From sequence record OR683401.1: DNA of 38,458 nt. One strand, given 5' to 3'. Below, in pieces: positions 1,409-36,840 of the stretch. The stretch comes from Pseudomonas phage Bise. Each line of letters begins with the position of its first letter. The stretch's first letter is position 1. The position numbers were made by a program, and so were the translations under genes. The notes beneath the pieces are model-generated. The model was not told where the DNA came from and ran no database searches. It saw only the letters and a program-made list of their open reading frames with translations.

Positions 1409-3015
1409 TCGGTCAGCTCCTGCCGCACGGCGTCAGCGCCGAACAGTTCGGACACGAACAGGGCGCGGGCGATGGCTTCGACCAGCAGAGCGTCATCGGT
1501 CAGCGGGTTTTCACTGGCCAGCAGCGCCAGTGCGTCCTCGGGGCCGGATGCCCGGCCGAGGGCTTCCAGCGCAGGCTTCAGCCAGGCGGCCGCCTGCGGT
1601 TGCAGTACGGCGGACAGTTCCTCCAGTGCGCCATCGAGCACGGCCTGGTCGGGGAATTCGGAACCGGCCGCTGCTTCCTCGCGCAACGCCGCCACCAGTG
1701 CGGCCTTGGCGTCGGCCTTCTTGGTCTTGGGGGCGGGCGGCTCCTCCTTGGCCGGAGCGGCGGTGCTGGTGGCCAGGACGGCCTCCTTATCCGAGGTCGG
1801 CTGGGGAATCCGCAGCCGTTCGTGTGCCCACTGCGTCGGGATTTGCATACCGATGGCCACCAGCTTCGGCAGTGCGTCGGCGTAGACCTTGATGTCCTCG
1901 CCTTCGGTCGTGTCAAACACCAGGCGGGGGCAGCGTCGGAAGTCGGCCCAGCCTTTATTGATGGCCAGCAGCGGGTAGATCAGGTCGCGGGTGAGCGTGC
2001 CCGCGAGCTGCTTGCAGTCGCTGTCGCGGATGTCCAGGCGCACTTCGTTGTGGATTTCGGCCACGCCGGAGCCGAGGCCGGTGGCCTCGGTGGTGCTGGT
2101 CAATGTGCTGCCCAGGATGGCCTTCGATTGCGTCTGCTCGCACCACTTAATCATCACCTCAAACGGCTTTTCCGAACCCTTCGCGGCCTCCTCGAACTCG
2201 ATGGCCATCGCCGAGGGGATGACGCCTGCGGCGTTGTGGCCGATGCCCGCGACGGCGCGCCAGAGCGTTGCCTTTTCCTCGGGGCTGGCGTTGCTCGGAT
2301 ACTTGCCGATGCGCAGCGGCAGACCGTAGATGTCGAGGAACTCGGCCAGGTCGCCAACCGAGAAGTGCTTGAACAAGTAGGGCCACACCAGCACGCGGCC
2401 CAGGCCGGAGCGCACGGTGTAGCCGGACATGGCCTTGTGGACGTGCATCATCCAGCCAAACGGGCGCAGCGGCACGCCGTCCAGGGAGCTGTCGCGCAGG
2501 CGTAGCTCGGTGCGGGTGTCGCGGTCGAAGCGGAACCAGGTCTGCGGGCGGTGGTTGAAGCGCACCACCGTCCAGTCGCTTCCAACCCTGTCCCAGTCGT
2601 ACTCGATAGGCGCGAAACCGTGCCCGATGGCGTCCAGCGCATCGAACATGAGGTCTTCCAGGTCAGTCATGTCCAGCAGCAGCTCCTTGGCATAGGCGCT
2701 GGCTTCCTCCTCCTCCTTGCTCGGGTTGCGTGGCGGCACGATGTCCCAGGGCAGCTTGATGACGGCGCGCTTGCGCTTGGACAGTTCGGAGAAAACGTGG
2801 CCATCGCGTTCCTCCATGTCGCGGAAAAGCTCATGCTGCGCGATCAAGTCGCCGTTTTCCGCGCGCTCCAGGATGGAGTTCAGGCGTGCGGGTGTCAGGC
2901 CGCGCGAGGGATGCTGCGCGACCTCCCGATGCAAGTTGATAAGTTGCGAGGTCTGTGCCTCATCCAGCGACGCCATGTTGATGGGGTTGCCGTATTGGTC
3001 GAGAAGTTTTGCCAT
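1405..3015 (-). CDS. Portal protein (Mu gp29 / DUF935 family)
   Basis: 536 aa; N-terminus MAKLLDQYGNPI... typical of Mu-like portals; lies between terminase and F. Confidence 0.8.
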   Translation of the reverse strand: MAKLLDQYGNPINMASLDEAQTSQLINLHREVAQHPSRGLTPARLNSILERAENGDLIAQHELFRDMEERDGHVFSELSKRKRAVIKLPWDIVPPRNPSKEEEEASAYAKELLLDMTDLEDLMFDALDAIGHGFAPIEYDWDRVGSDWTVVRFNHRPQTWFRFDRDTRTELRLRDSSLDGVPLRPFGWMMHVHKAMSGYTVRSGLGRVLVWPYLFKHFSVGDLAEFLDIYGLPLRIGKYPSNASPEEKATLWRAVAGIGHNAAGVIPSAMAIEFEEAAKGSEKPFEVMIKWCEQTQSKAILGSTLTSTTEATGLGSGVAEIHNEVRLDIRDSDCKQLAGTLTRDLIYPLLAINKGWADFRRCPRLVFDTTEGEDIKVYADALPKLVAIGMQIPTQWAHERLRIPQPTSDKEAVLATSTAAPAKEEPPAPKTKKADAKAALVAALREEAAAGSEFPDQAVLDGALEELSAVLQPQAAAWLKPALEALGRASGPEDALALLASENPLTDDALLVEAIARALFVSELFGADAVRQELTE

Positions 3016-3024
3016 TCAGTGCTC

Positions 3025-4716
3025 CTACCAGCCAGCCATGCGGCCGCCGTATTCAAGATCGGTGTCGGTGTCCATCTCATCGACCTGCGCATCGCGCCGT
3101 GGCACTTCCATGTACTCGGCCAGCCATTCATCAACCGGGTTGAGCGCGGCGAACTGCATCAGCGCACCGGCCACCGCGCCGTCGCCGTGCCTGACCAGGT
3201 CGGCGTCCTTCAGGTCTTTGCGCTCCAGCTTCGGCACCATCGGGATACCGTCGATGAACTCGACGGCGCGATGGTCATCCTCCAGCGAGGCGTCGCGCGG
3301 CATGGTGATGAATCCGTCCTCGAACAGCGAGATGTATTTGCCCATCCACTCGCCGTACCAGGAACGCGAGAGCGTGATCTCGTGGACGGGGCCGCCGGTG
3401 TAGCCGCCCGTTTTCTCATCGAACACCGCGCGCCCGAACTTGTCGCCGGTGTATTCCATGAGCGTCTGGCCAGGGCCGGAGGCATCGCCCGCGAACGTCC
3501 ACCGCTTCAGCTCGCCCAGCAGCGCCCAGAGAATCTGCTCCTGCTGCCGGGTCGGGGCGTTGGCCAGCTCCAGGATGAAGGGCACGTCGCGGCGCAGATC
3601 GGCCGTGATGCGGGCGGGCGTGATGACCGAGAAGTGACGGTGGCGCGCGAAGTCCATGCCGACCGCCCAGCGTCCGGCAAAGCCGCGCTGGGCCTCGTTG
3701 AGCGCGGGCATGAGCGTGGTGGCAATCCACGATGCGGCCCATATCTCGCGCTCCTTTTCCGACCGTTTCGGGAAGTCGTCGCTGAAAACGATGCGGAGCA
3801 CGGGCCGGATTTCCGGCATTGCCCGTTCAATCCAGACCGAGGGAATAGCCGAACCGTCGCCATCACGCGGAATCACGTCCAGCTCCTCGCGCATGGCTGC
3901 CTTGCGCGGGCCATATGCGGCCCGGATGGCGGTGTACCAATCCCTTTTGCCTTCTTCGGTCGCTGGGATGCCTTTCATGGCACAAACGCGCTCGTAGAGG
4001 CCGTTGGCCACGGCGTCATCGAACGTGATGCGGATGCACCTGGCACGCTTCCCGTAGCGCCCGGCACGGACGTCCTGCACCAACTGGTGGAAGGCGTTTT
4101 TCTTGCCGCGATGCGATGACCAGACGCGAATGCGGCCGCCCCAAATGAGCAGAGCCGTCGCTGATTCGAGCACCTTGGAAACGTCCTTGTGCAAGGCTGC
4201 TTCGTCCAGGTCAACCAGCCCTTGCAAGCCGTGGATGTTTTCCGGCCGAGAAGAAAGCGCCGTGACGCGGAACCCGCTGGCGAAGCGGACGCGGAACGCC
4301 TGAATCTCGCGGCTGGTGCCATCGGCCCGCTGGTCAAGGAAGATGTGCTGCTCAATGCGCGTCGCCTGGCCACGCGCCACGATCTGCGAGAACTTGCCGA
4401 CATAGCCGATGTATTCCAGACCCTTTTCACGGGTGTCGGCCATGTACCACACGTTGCTGCCGCCTGCTTCCTTGGCGGTGGCGGCGGTGATCGTGTCGGT
4501 CAGGGCTTGTGCGAACGTGATACCCGTGCGGCGGCCTTTCTCGCACACCGAGATGTCCAAGTCCTGCTGCATCCGAATCCAGTCCGACTGGTGCTTCATC
4601 AGCACCCCTTCGGCGAAGGGGTCGAAGTCGGGAGGTATCTGGCGGACGTTCTCCGGCAGCTCGTCCCACTCGACGATGCGCTCGGTATCGGGGAGAGATG
4701 CAGGAATACCCATCAC
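3025..4716 (-). CDS. Terminase large subunit (Mu gp28-like)
   Basis: 563 aa; position and similarity pattern of Mu-like terminases. Confidence 0.8.
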   Translation of the reverse strand: MMGIPASLPDTERIVEWDELPENVRQIPPDFDPFAEGVLMKHQSDWIRMQQDLDISVCEKGRRTGITFAQALTDTITAATAKEAGGSNVWYMADTREKGLEYIGYVGKFSQIVARGQATRIEQHIFLDQRADGTSREIQAFRVRFASGFRVTALSSRPENIHGLQGLVDLDEAALHKDVSKVLESATALLIWGGRIRVWSSHRGKKNAFHQLVQDVRAGRYGKRARCIRITFDDAVANGLYERVCAMKGIPATEEGKRDWYTAIRAAYGPRKAAMREELDVIPRDGDGSAIPSVWIERAMPEIRPVLRIVFSDDFPKRSEKEREIWAASWIATTLMPALNEAQRGFAGRWAVGMDFARHRHFSVITPARITADLRRDVPFILELANAPTRQQEQILWALLGELKRWTFAGDASGPGQTLMEYTGDKFGRAVFDEKTGGYTGGPVHEITLSRSWYGEWMGKYISLFEDGFITMPRDASLEDDHRAVEFIDGIPMVPKLERKDLKDADLVRHGDGAVAGALMQFAALNPVDEWLAEYMEVPRRDAQVDEMDTDTDLEYGGRMAGW

Positions 4717-33309: not shown

Positions 33310-33630
33310 ATGCCGCAAATCATCTTGAAGCAGCCGAGCCAGAACTCGGCCGACTTCTCCGTCAACGGTGCCGTCATCACGGTGGCCGGTGTCACCGTCA
33401 ACTGCGAGGCCCGCGAGGAGGACGTCGCGCAGATCATCGAAATCCGCCAGCACGATGGCGTGGCCCAGGAGGGCGGCGAAGGCGCGTTCCTGGCGCAGAT
33501 CGAAATCCCGGCCCGCCGCTACGTGGACGAGGAAGGCCCGCTCGGCGAGGACGAGCAGCCGACCATCGTGCGCAGCCCCGTGCCGTTCGACCCCAACCGC
33601 GTCGCGCTGACGTTGTGGCCCACCAACTGA
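33310..33630 (+). CDS. Hypothetical protein upstream of the DGR target
   Basis: 106 aa; RBS AAGGAGA. Confidence 0.4.
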   Translation: MPQIILKQPSQNSADFSVNGAVITVAGVTVNCEAREEDVAQIIEIRQHDGVAQEGGEGAFLAQIEIPARRYVDEEGPLGEDEQPTIVRSPVPFDPNRVALTLWPTN

Positions 33631-33646
33631 CCTAGGAGCACCACCC

Positions 33647-34741
33647 ATGACTATCTTCATCAAAGACGACCTGCGCGCGAGCGTGGAAGCGGCCACGGGC
33701 GGCCTTGTCACCGTGCTCTACACGGCGGCCGGGCATCCGAGCTACATGAACGTGATCCCCAAGTTCAACTTGCAGGACATCGACCCGGCGCTGGGCACCG
33801 GGGTGCATCCGGCTTTCATCGTCAACGGCGTGGAAAAGAGCGAGCTGTTCATCGGCCAGCATGTCGGCTGCGTCAAGGACAGCAACCTGCTGTCCTTCCC
33901 CGGCGCGGTGCCGCAGGTCAGCGCGAACTTCGACACCTTCAGGACGTGGGCGGCGAACAACGGCCCCGGCTGGCACATCATGACCAACGCCGAATGGGCG
34001 GCCATCGCCCTCTGGTGCTGGAAGAACGGCACGATGCCGCGCGGCAACAACAACTGGGGCCGTGATGTCGGCTCGACGTGGGAGACGGCCCGCCGTGTTG
34101 ATGGTGGCGCGCCTGGTGATGCCACGGGCAACGGCCGCCACTACACCGGCTCCGGCCCCGCCTCCTGGCGGCACAACGGCCAGGCCAACGGCATTGCCGA
34201 CCTGAATGGCAACGTGTGGGAGTGGTCGGGTGGCCTGCGCCTCAACGATGGCGAAATCCAGGTGCTGGCCAACAACGACGCCGCCGACAACACGAAAGAC
34301 CAGAGCAGCACCTCGACGCTCTGGAAGGCCATCAAGGCGTCGGATGGCTCGCTGGTTGCGCCGGGTACGGCGGGCACTTTGAAGTACGACGCGACGGGTG
34401 CCAACGGCACTGGAGGCAACGTGCTGTCCGACACCGTGACCAGCCGCTCTGGCAACGTGGGCGAGAACGACAACGTCAACGGCACCGGCCAGGCGTTCGA
34501 GAGCATGACTGTGAAGGCGGGGCTGACGGTGCCCGCCATCGCCAAGGTGTTGTGCTTGTATCCGCCTGTGGCGGGCCTGGGCGGCGATAACTTCTGGATG
34601 CGCAACCACGGCGAACGTCTGCCTCTGGCCGGTGGCAGCTATAACAATGGTGCCTCGGCTGGGGTGTTCGCGCGCGATCTCGCTAATGCACGAGCGAGTG
34701 TTAGCGGAAGCGTCGGCGCTCGCCCGGCCTATGTTCTTTGA
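33647..34741 (+). CDS. DGR variable target protein (Mtd-like receptor-binding protein; C-terminal FGE-sulfatase / C-type-lectin fold)
   Basis: 364 aa; GNVWEWSGG and NNWGRD motifs of the FGE/CLec fold; the last about 41 codons are the VR. Confidence 0.8.
   Translation: MTIFIKDDLRASVEAATGGLVTVLYTAAGHPSYMNVIPKFNLQDIDPALGTGVHPAFIVNGVEKSELFIGQHVGCVKDSNLLSFPGAVPQVSANFDTFRTWAANNGPGWHIMTNAEWAAIALWCWKNGTMPRGNNNWGRDVGSTWETARRVDGGAPGDATGNGRHYTGSGPASWRHNGQANGIADLNGNVWEWSGGLRLNDGEIQVLANNDAADNTKDQSSTSTLWKAIKASDGSLVAPGTAGTLKYDATGANGTGGNVLSDTVTSRSGNVGENDNVNGTGQAFESMTVKAGLTVPAIAKVLCLYPPVAGLGGDNFWMRNHGERLPLAGGSYNNGASAGVFARDLANARASVSGSVGARPAYVL
34615..34738 (+). repeat. DGR variable repeat (VR), 124 bp, at the 3' end of the target gene
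   Basis: Near-identical to TR 35329-35452; all 9 differences fall at TR adenines. Confidence 0.85.
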
Positions 34742-34791
34742 AAGGGGGTGCGGTAGCACCCACCAGCAGCGCAACAGCATGTGATGGGTCT

Positions 34792-34824
34792 CCCGGTCGC
34801 GTTAGCGACCGGGCGATTTTTTTT
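34792..34824 (+). other. GC-rich hairpin with 4-nt loop (CCCGGTCGC-GTTA-GCGACCGGG) followed by T8; DGR target-recognition hairpin and/or terminator
   Basis: About 54 bp downstream of the VR; 9-bp stem. Confidence 0.55.
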
Positions 34825-34880
34825 CAGGGGGTGGTGCGATAAAATCGCAAGCGGATTTTGATTGGGGAGGCGGGGCTGGA

Positions 34881-35294
34881 ATGGCGGTAGATCGGGAAGC
34901 GCAACTGGTGCGCAAGTTCGTGGAGTTCTCGAAGCTCCTCAATGTGTACCTAAACCACTTTCCCCGCCACGAACGCTACGCCCTCTCGAACCGAATCCGA
35001 AACGCCGCCTATGACGTCTACGACTTGATCGTGGAAGGTCAGAAGCGGTACCACAAGAAGACGTCCCTCACGCAGCTTGACATTGCCCATGAGCAATTGC
35101 GGATGCAGTTGTTTCTGGCCTATGAAATGGGCTATTTCAAGTTCACGGACGGACGCACCGAAGGGAACGCGGTAGAAGTAGAAGCGAAACGCTGGCAGGC
35201 GATCAGCAAGCTGGTGGATGAGCTGGGCCGCATGATCGGAGGTTGGATACGGCACGAGCTGGCCGAATCGAAAGAGGCAGGCCAGCAGAAATGA
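34881..35294 (+). CDS. avd: DGR accessory variability determinant (Avd), four-helix-bundle protein
   Basis: 137 aa basic helical protein; similarity pattern to BPP-1 Avd; sits between target and TR. Confidence 0.75.
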   Translation: MAVDREAQLVRKFVEFSKLLNVYLNHFPRHERYALSNRIRNAAYDVYDLIVEGQKRYHKKTSLTQLDIAHEQLRMQLFLAYEMGYFKFTDGRTEGNAVEVEAKRWQAISKLVDELGRMIGGWIRHELAESKEAGQQK

Positions 35295-35328
35295 CCAGTC
35301 CGTTGTGGTTTAAGGGCGGCCTACGATC

Positions 35329-35452
35329 ACGTCTGCCTCTGGCCGGTGGCAACTATAACAATGGTGCCTCGGCTGGGGTGTTCGCGCGCAATCTCAATAA
35401 TGCACGAACGAATGTTAACGGAAACGTCGGCGCTCGCCCGGACTGCGGCTTC
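35329..35452 (+). repeat. DGR template repeat (TR), 124 bp
   Basis: Invariant donor copy; 9 AAY (Asn) codons in the VR reading frame; followed by a diverged IMH*-like region. Confidence 0.85.
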
Positions 35453-35605
35453 TTCCTCAAACCTCGAATGGGGATAGTGGAGCCATAGGGATAGGTCGTC
35501 CTGCTTGCCCGCGTAGCGGGCAGCGAACTCGTAGTCACTCCGCGCTTTTTGGTAGGGTTCGGCCCGAAGACCAGCGCGGAGTTTTTTTTGGGGTATGGAG
35601 GGGCA
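35453..35605 (+). ncRNA. DGR spacer region between TR and RT with nested hairpins (35499-35518; 10-bp stem 35537-35546/35573-35582 followed by T8)
   Basis: Non-coding 153 nt with strong secondary-structure potential; analogous to the Sp region of the BPP-1 DGR RNA. Confidence 0.45.
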
Positions 35606-36637
35606 ATGAAGCGGCACGGGAACCTGTTTGAGCAGACCTTCACCCGCGAGGCGCTGTACGACGCCTACGTGGAGGCCAGGCGCGGTAAGCGCCTGCGCAA
35701 GGCGTGCTTCTGGTTCGACATCCGCGCCGGTGCCGTGCTGGACTGGCTGCACCGCCGCCTGCACGATGGCAGCTATGAGATTCGCGGCTACAAGCGGTTC
35801 CTGGTGCATGAACCCAAGACCCGCGAAATCTGCGCGCCGTGGTTCGGCGACATCGTGGTACAGCACGCCATCTACTCGGTCATCAGGCCGATCTTCGAGC
35901 GTGTATTCATCGACCAGTCCTTCGCCTGCCGACTCGGCAAGGGTACACACAAGGCTTCCGAGTACGCGATGGCGGCGCTGCGCCAGAGCCGCCCCGACAG
36001 CTACACCCTCAAGCTCGACATCAGGAAATTCTTTTACCGCATCGACCGGGGCATCCTGCGCAAGCTCATCGAGCGCAAGATCAAGGACAAGCGCCTGGTG
36101 GACATGATGATGAAGTTCGCCGAGCTGCCCGAGCCGCTGGGCATCCCCATCGGCAACCTGCTCTCGCAGGTCTATGCGCTGATCTACCTCAACGCCCTCG
36201 ACCACTTCGTCAAGCGCGAACTGAAGGTGAAGCTCTACTGCCGGTACGTGGACGACTTCATCCTGTTCGACCTCGACCGGGAACAGTGCCTGGAATACAA
36301 GGCGCGCATCGAAGCGTTCCTGCACAACGAGCTGCACCTGGAGCTGTCGAAGTGGACGATGGCCAAGACCAAGCGCGGGGTGAACTTCGTGGGCTACCGC
36401 ACCTGGCGGCGGGCCAAGTTCATCCGCAAATACAGCCTGTTCAAGTTCCGGCGGGCGGCCAAGCGGGGGAAGACGGACAGCGTCATATCGCTGCTGGGCC
36501 ACGCCAAGCACTCGCACTCGCTTGGGTTCATGTGGCGCACCATCCGCGAGGTCAATCCCGACCTGGTGCGCAAGCTGCCGCCGAAGGTGAGGCGCTTCTA
36601 CCCGGCCAGGCCGAGCGCGCCGCCGCAGCAAAACTAA
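35606..36637 (+). CDS. DGR reverse transcriptase
   Basis: Start MKRHGNLFEQ with RBS GGAGG; motifs IGNLLSQ and YVDD typical of DGR RTs. Confidence 0.9.
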   Translation: MKRHGNLFEQTFTREALYDAYVEARRGKRLRKACFWFDIRAGAVLDWLHRRLHDGSYEIRGYKRFLVHEPKTREICAPWFGDIVVQHAIYSVIRPIFERVFIDQSFACRLGKGTHKASEYAMAALRQSRPDSYTLKLDIRKFFYRIDRGILRKLIERKIKDKRLVDMMMKFAELPEPLGIPIGNLLSQVYALIYLNALDHFVKRELKVKLYCRYVDDFILFDLDREQCLEYKARIEAFLHNELHLELSKWTMAKTKRGVNFVGYRTWRRAKFIRKYSLFKFRRAAKRGKTDSVISLLGHAKHSHSLGFMWRTIREVNPDLVRKLPPKVRRFYPARPSAPPQQN

Positions 36638-36648
36638 AGTGCTTGAAT
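36625..36648 (+). promoter_or_regulatory. Late-promoter activator site (P_com / P_mom equivalent): GCAGCAAAACTAAAGTGCTTGAAT
   Basis: Partial copy of the dyad motif overlapping the RT stop; about 200 bp upstream of com. Confidence 0.4.
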
Positions 36649-36840
36649 GGCGGTGCGTGGGGGAAAGCCGGATGCTATCGGCTGAAAAGGACGGGCGACC
36701 CCACCCGGTGCTGGAACACCGGACGGAACCCCAATCAAGCAGACAAGCCTGCAAGACCGGCCAAGGCCCGCCACCTGGTACCAGGCGGTTCTTAGCCTAT
36801 CAGAATCTGCAAATGGTTTGCAGAAAAGGGCTTGTTCGCT

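Follow-up and report, generated by a model that had tools for sequence, protein, structure and literature searches.

The closest described system is the diversity-generating retroelement (DGR) of the Bordetella phage BPP-1. Reverse transcription of its avd-TR-spacer RNA with adenine-specific errors has been established (PMC12875486), and a hairpin or cruciform stem-loop downstream of the variable repeat was identified by Guo et al. 2011 (PMC3240598) and later reconfirmed in E. coli (PMC12875486). The published rules for BPP-1-type stem-loops are a GC stem of 7-10 bp, a 4-nt loop that reads G-R-N-A on the sense strand, and a position 4-34 bp from the variable repeat (PMC3240598). Both the size and the sequence of the loop are critical, and activity drops progressively as the spacer is lengthened by insertions (PMC3240598). 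The requirement lies at the DNA level, as was found in experiments that included inversion of the target (PMC3240598; PMC12875486). The resemblance of DGR stem-loops to terminators has also been remarked upon (PMC3240598). In BPP-1, a G/C-only 14-mer (GC14) is followed by a 21-bp element that differs at few positions between the variable and template repeats (IMH versus IMH*), and then by GCGGGGCC-GAAA-GGCCCCGC, which overlaps the stop codon; avd begins 12 nt later.

The DGR described here lies in a stretch of 38,458 nucleotides, hereafter the window. The element is of a known kind and its mechanism is not new; the roles of two hairpins downstream of its target gene are reassigned.

Layout of the retroelement and its homologues

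A complete DGR is encoded on the + strand toward the 3' end of the window. The features that define membership of the class are present: a reverse transcriptase (RT) with an RVT_1 domain, an Avd protein of the bAvd family, and a template/variable repeat pair with adenine-specific differences. Its parts are listed below.

33647..34741, + strand: target gene of the DGR, an open reading frame for a tail-associated protein of 364 aa; stop codon TGA at 34739-34741
34615..34727, + strand: variable repeat (VR), 113 nt, a direct repeat of TR at an offset of 714
34711..34727, + strand: A-free GC-rich 3' end of VR, an IMH-like boundary; same sequence in TR at 35425-35441
34744..34764, + strand: stem-loop H1; perfect core 34746-34761, loop 34752-34755
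34792..34813, + strand: stem-loop H2, read as an intrinsic terminator; extendable to 34789-34816
34817..34824, + strand: T8 tract of the putative terminator; T-rich tails retained in positional homologues
34840..34845, + strand: TAAAAT, a -10-like box downstream of the putative terminator; a lead only
34881..35294, + strand: avd, accessory variability determinant (Pfam bAvd, E 1.9e-14)
35329..35441, + strand: template repeat (TR), 113 nt, a direct repeat with VR
35442..35605, + strand: TR-to-RT spacer, conserved family-wide and structured; no G-R-N-A hairpin at the position equivalent to that beside VR
35606..36637, + strand: DGR RT (Pfam RVT_1)

The target gene is the last gene of the + strand baseplate/tail block and matched phrog_2889 of PHROGs (E 1e-139) as well as a tail-protein family. 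A Shine-Dalgarno (SD) sequence of its own, GGGGAGG at 34864-34870, precedes avd. The window DGR differs from that of BPP-1 in its RT, which is only 38% (37.9%) identical to Brt, and in the position of avd, which lies behind the putative terminator instead of directly following the target.

A megablast search of 33600-36700 against phage genomes returned no matches, and homologous loci were therefore sought through relatives of the RT protein in viral contigs, genomes and metagenomes. This yielded ~100 loci with the same layout, whose RTs are 52-94% identical to that of the window. TR/VR pairs in the homologues were called automatically, and the differences within a pair had to be adenine-biased.

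The repeats and their GC-rich boundary

All eight internal differences between VR and TR in the window fall at TR adenines (P ~4e-6), and they occupy codon positions 1 and 2. The identity of the two repeats ends in CGTCGGCGCTCGCCCGG, as the first-pass annotation had proposed, at 34711-34727 and not at 34721-34737, an error of 10 nt. This stretch comprises 17 nt without A, of which 15 are G or C. The A-free terminal stretch of TR has a median length of 17 nt across the family, and the last 14 nt of TR are 79% GC as against 54% for the remainder. The window thus resembles the IMH region of BPP-1 in having an A-free GC-rich stretch at the end of both repeats, followed by divergence, with a stem-loop after VR only. 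It differs from BPP-1 in that the stretch is not purely G/C and in that no 21-bp near-identical element follows it.

The latter difference bears on the earlier proposal that VR and TR retain partial similarity beyond the boundary, in an IMH versus IMH*-like arrangement. In the 21 nt after the boundary, 5/21 positions are identical in the window and a mean of 6.4/21 across 75 loci, both of which are chance level, and 'CT' at positions 2-3 is all that VR and TR have in common. The divergence is immediate throughout the family, VR continuing into CCTTGTATCT.TGA and TR into ACTCGG.TTCACCTC. A BPP-1-style 21-bp IMH/IMH* pair was therefore rejected for the window DGR, and the survey of ~100 loci indicates that such a pair is not general. 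The GC-rich boundary can fairly be regarded as the functional counterpart of the IMH's GC part, and VR and TR are presumably told apart by the complete divergence beyond it together with a stem-loop found beside VR only.

The closest relative, L081 (RT identity 93%), was found in a metagenome-assembled genome (MAG) of Burkholderiaceae. Its VR (3014-3128) was compared with that of the window (34615-34727), and its TR was found to differ from the window TR at eight sites. In both loci, VR tracks its own TR except at adenine sites, which are scrambled, and it is at adenines that the VR of L081 differs from that of the window. The DGR has therefore been active since the two lineages diverged, and the comparison reads as direct evidence that homing is ongoing in both. 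The origin of L081 hints at a Burkholderiaceae host.

Two hairpins between the target gene and avd

The hairpin H1 was overlooked in the first-pass annotation. It lies between the stop codon and H2 (GG-GGGTGC-GGTA-GCACCC-(A)-CC, loop GGTA), 16-18 nt past the VR/TR boundary at 34727, 2-4 nt past the stop codon and 30 bases upstream of H2. H1 formed in every fold computed, as DNA and as RNA, with pair probabilities of at least 0.95; its predicted stability is modest as DNA (-7.2 kcal/mol) and greater as RNA (-13.8 kcal/mol). The distance from VR falls within the published range of 4-34 bp and the loop conforms to G-R-N-A. The stem consists of six perfect pairs, five of them G-C, and two more beyond a bulged A, compared with the 7-10 bp of the published rule; the perfect stem (6 bp, or 8 bp with the bulged A) is also shorter than the BPP-1 optimum of 8-10 bp.

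H1 resembles the BPP-1 stem-loop in several respects: its inverted repeat is rich in GC, its 4-nt loop reads G-R-N-A on the sense strand, and it is placed soon after the stop codon of the target, ~20 nt beyond the point where the GC-rich part of VR ends, with no counterpart beside TR. The two differ in their loops, GGTA in H1 and GAAA in BPP-1, and in their stems, 6+2 bp with a bulge in H1 and eight perfect pairs in BPP-1.

The conservation of H1 was examined in the homologous loci. By an automatic rule, 74 of 76 non-duplicate loci (RT identity 52-93%) have a hairpin just past the target stop codon whose 4-nt loop reads G-R-N-A and begins 22-41 nt beyond the boundary; L018, L068, L056 and L098, in which the automatic VR-end rule had mis-set the boundary, were excluded from the distance statistics. 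In the other two loci (L011 and L098) a variant of the hairpin can be seen, with a G.T pair or with T-A as the closing pair. The hairpin was also present in 29/29 further non-duplicate loci from metagenomes. The loops of the first set were GATA (44), GGTA (16), GAGA (8), GAAA (3), GGCA (1), GGGA (1) and GACA (1), and position 2 of the loop was a purine in every one of the ~100 homologues and never a pyrimidine. The published G-R-N-A rule, which covered a handful of phage DGRs, is thereby extended. Within 60 nt of the end of the repeat, a G-R-N-A hairpin was found on the VR side of 97/98 loci and on the TR side of 7/98, the latter mostly marginal stems of 2 bp.

As in BPP-1, the sequence of these stems is free to vary while their position and pairing are kept. 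Among 30 sequences with a continuous stem, eight of nine pairs showed changes on both sides, and 84% of cells were paired, compared with 62% in shuffles. The covariation score was 0.512, against 0.147 in shuffles (0/500 of which reached 0.512) and at most 0.27 in slid controls. As the alignments were anchored on the loop and selected on the innermost 2-3 pairs, which favours those pairs, only the outer pairs provide an unbiased test of covariation. In a search of the window with a covariance model (CM) built from 30 family hairpins, H1 was the top match, at 28 bits. The anatomy, conservation and covariation of H1 and its VR-versus-TR asymmetry are matters of direct observation.

A second architecture, CTGAGC-GATA-GCGATGGG, combines two inner pairs with a tandem G.A, a bulged T and an outer stem of 5-6 bp, and this outer stem also covaries. 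It occurs 14-35 nt past the VR end in L026, L015, L047, L091 and ~35 other loci that form a more distant subfamily. In these loci the ATG of avd lies inside the 3' arm of the hairpin and the TGA of the target abuts the 5' arm, an arrangement that suggests translational coupling of avd, or occlusion of its start codon, by the target-marking hairpin in this subfamily.

The second hairpin, H2, is the one to which the first-pass annotation had drawn attention. Its description as a perfect hairpin with a GTTA loop followed by T8 was accurate: H2 is CCCGGTCGC-GTTA-GCGACCGGG at 34792-34813, and is followed by CGA and then by T8 at 34817-34824. The distance given, ~54 bp, was not; with the boundary at 34727, H2 starts 64 nt downstream of it. 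The 9-bp stem contains eight G-C pairs and agrees with the published stem rule of 7-10 bp, GC-rich. When folded with its flanking sequence, H2 did not show the instability that would have refuted the first-pass reading: pair probabilities are at least 0.97 as DNA or RNA, and its predicted RNA free energy is -19.4 kcal/mol, or -23.9 kcal/mol in an extended form with two further pairs.

Several properties of H2 are those of a rho-independent terminator. It is a stable GC-rich stem-loop (9-bp stem, 4-nt loop) with a T8 tract, and occupies an intergenic site where a co-oriented operon closes, 50 nt beyond the stop codon of the last late-operon gene. As there is no A tract upstream, it would act on one strand only. 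It departs from a typical terminator in the three bases (CGA) between the perfect stem and the T tract; a single base is left there if the stem is lengthened across a 1x1 mismatch. Of 17 perfect hairpins of at least 8 bp in the window, H2 alone precedes a T run, and it ranked first in terminator scans of the whole window, in which it was the only convincing terminator-like site. The suggestion that H2 and T8 form a plausible terminator for the late tail transcript is supported, and H2 is predicted to have termination activity. An Rfam search at a permissive threshold returned only sub-threshold chance matches on terminator-like stems.

The distribution of H2 among relatives is the second line of evidence. 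The spacer between the VR end and avd is 30-85 nt in ~89/95 loci and therefore has room for the H1-type hairpin and none for a second. It is expanded, to 102-192 nt, only in the closest clade (RT identity at least 76%), nine loci of which (the window itself, L081, L162, L001, L163, L002, L003, L004 and L167) have a second GC-rich hairpin with a T-rich tail. A stem-loop conserved at the position of H2 in homologous targets, which the first-pass reading called for, was consequently not found, an outcome that the reading itself had named as refuting: the second hairpin is confined to these nine loci, at variable offsets of +65 to ~+102. Its loops are GTTA (window, L081, L162), TTCT (L001, L163), ATCA (L002), GAA (L003) and GTA (L004, L167), 3-4 nt long; the hairpins are unrelated in sequence, and pairing in their stems is retained via compensatory changes. 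The T-rich tail CGATTTTTTTT is common to L167 and the window. These hairpins look like terminators because the loop varies in sequence and size while the stem and the T tail are kept. The pattern is the opposite of that of the DGR stem-loop.

Roles of the hairpins and of the flanking spacers

It is highly probable that H1 is the target-recognition stem-loop of this DGR and that H2 is a clade-specific rho-independent terminator. The first-pass annotation had instead assigned both functions to H2, and H2 is indeed of the same physical type as the BPP-1 hairpin, with a GC-rich 9-bp stem and a 4-nt loop that begins with G and ends with A. Moreover, the likeness between DGR stem-loops and terminators is on record (PMC3240598), and the core of H2, GCGTTAGC, differs from that of H1, GCGGTAGC, by one base. 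A clean exclusion of H2 by the family CM was attempted and failed, as H2 scored 18.3 bits (E ~0.05), which is the second-best score in the window and comparable to those of the weakest true family members. The case against H2 as a target-recognition element is consequently built on its distance, the second position of its loop and its lack of conservation, the points on which it departs from the BPP-1 stem-loop. H2 lies 64 nt from the boundary, beyond both the family range and the published range of 4-34 bp, and insertions in BPP-1 cause a progressive loss of activity. Its loop has T at the position that is a purine in all of the ~100 homologues. The loops of its positional homologues include TTCT, ATCA, GAA and GTA; in the majority of homologues a second hairpin is lacking altogether. 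H1, in contrast, is a better-placed and conserved candidate. A dual function for H2 is accordingly considered unlikely.

The CM score and the near-identical core do allow for a minor or redundant role of H2 in targeting, to which we give little credence. Similarly, there is a slim chance that H2 arose as a diverged copy of the DGR stem-loop or is its functional twin, with stem-loop and terminator interconverting or sharing work in this clade. Group IIC introns target sites just upstream of terminator-like hairpins, and such a twin, if real, would back with a natural example the old speculation that DGRs evolved to do likewise. It is scarcely credible that H2 has no function and is an inverted repeat due to chance or a piece of another element. 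The consensus scan for terminator-like sites, taken overall, showed no enrichment over shuffles; however, dinucleotide shuffles give an expectation of ~0.5 perfect hairpins with a stem of at least 9 bp and a 4-nt loop per 38 kb, or ~0.001 per 100-nt interval, and H2 is intergenic, is followed by T8, and has a stem and tail maintained in relatives via compensatory changes.

H1 might alternatively act mainly as RNA, by stabilising the target mRNA at its 3' end or regulating the translation of avd, and not as a DNA target signal. The stability of its RNA fold (-13.8 kcal/mol) would suit such a role, as would the ~40 more distant loci in which the avd start codon and the target stop codon are positioned for coupling or occlusion. 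Against this, the loops of H1-type hairpins, mostly GATA and GGTA, obey the G-R-N-A consensus of DGRs and not the GNRA rule of RNA tetraloops, the hairpin is specific to the VR side, and in BPP-1 the requirement is at the DNA level (PMC3240598; PMC12875486). In the window, avd begins 117 nt downstream of H1 and past the putative terminator, and so no avd-related RNA role is possible there. A mainly RNA-level function thus seems very unlikely, though RNA-level and DNA-level roles are not mutually exclusive.

With H1 as the target-recognition stem-loop, the following sequence of events may be proposed. The avd-TR-spacer RNA would be reverse-transcribed with adenine-specific errors, as in BPP-1 (PMC12875486), and the cDNA would replace VR, transfer beginning in the GC-rich stretch common to VR and TR. 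H1 and the A-free GC-rich end of VR (34711-34727) would together mark VR, and not TR, as the recipient of the adenine-mutagenised cDNA. By analogy with the BPP-1 experiments, H1 would function at the DNA level, probably raising the efficiency of cDNA integration as a hairpin or cruciform, perhaps because it holds the target open, the model put forward in PMC12875486. H2 would end the transcript of the late tail operon before avd, 50-80 nt past the target gene. It was probably added in the small clade in which the target-to-avd spacer grew from ~30-85 nt to 154-192 nt, and would insulate the avd-TR-RT cassette, which is served by a ribosome-binding site, and possibly a promoter, of its own. For annotation, the stem-loop of the DGR target site is corrected to H1 (34744-34764) in place of the putative terminator, and the right stem-loop is needed if the system is to be reused in targeted diversification or genes accessible to DGRs are to be predicted.

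The region between H2 and avd contains GCGATAAAATCGC (34835-34849), within which TAAAAT occupies 34840-34845. The T-A-n-A-A-T pattern is invariant in the aligned close relatives with an expanded target-to-avd spacer and is also present in L162, L163, L166 and L167. The box may be the -10 element of a promoter for avd-TR-RT; a sigma-70 consensus scan between H2 and avd found no promoter, and no -35 element at the proper spacing to TAAAAT. In the same region, GCGATTTT (34813-34820) is perfectly complementary to AAAATCGC (34841-34848). L166 and L167 contain, between the VR-side hairpin and avd, a GATAGAAT box flanked by the inverted repeats CCCCCTG(G)/(C)CAGGGGG and followed by T runs, an arrangement around the conserved box that differs from that of the window.

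A hairpin on the TR side, TGCCCGC-GTA-GCGGGCA (35506-35522), lies at +65 past the TR end, the same offset as that of H2 past VR. Homology between the two was considered and rejected, as the 64 nt preceding each hairpin are unrelated and relatives do not share the offsets; the equal offset is probably a coincidence. The TR-to-RT spacer that contains this hairpin (35442-35605) matched no Rfam family. Across ~75 loci (RT identity 52-93%) it is strongly conserved in sequence and in apparent structure, the motifs GTGGA.C.A.GGGA, GCGAA.TC, CTTT.TGGTAG and CGAA.GTCAG being interspersed with variable hairpins, and it presumably serves, as the spacer of the DGR RNA, in RT-Avd recruitment and cDNA priming. 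In the window, the spacer ends in CCGCGCT...AGCGCGG and AG-T8 (35540-35589), immediately before the start codon of the RT.
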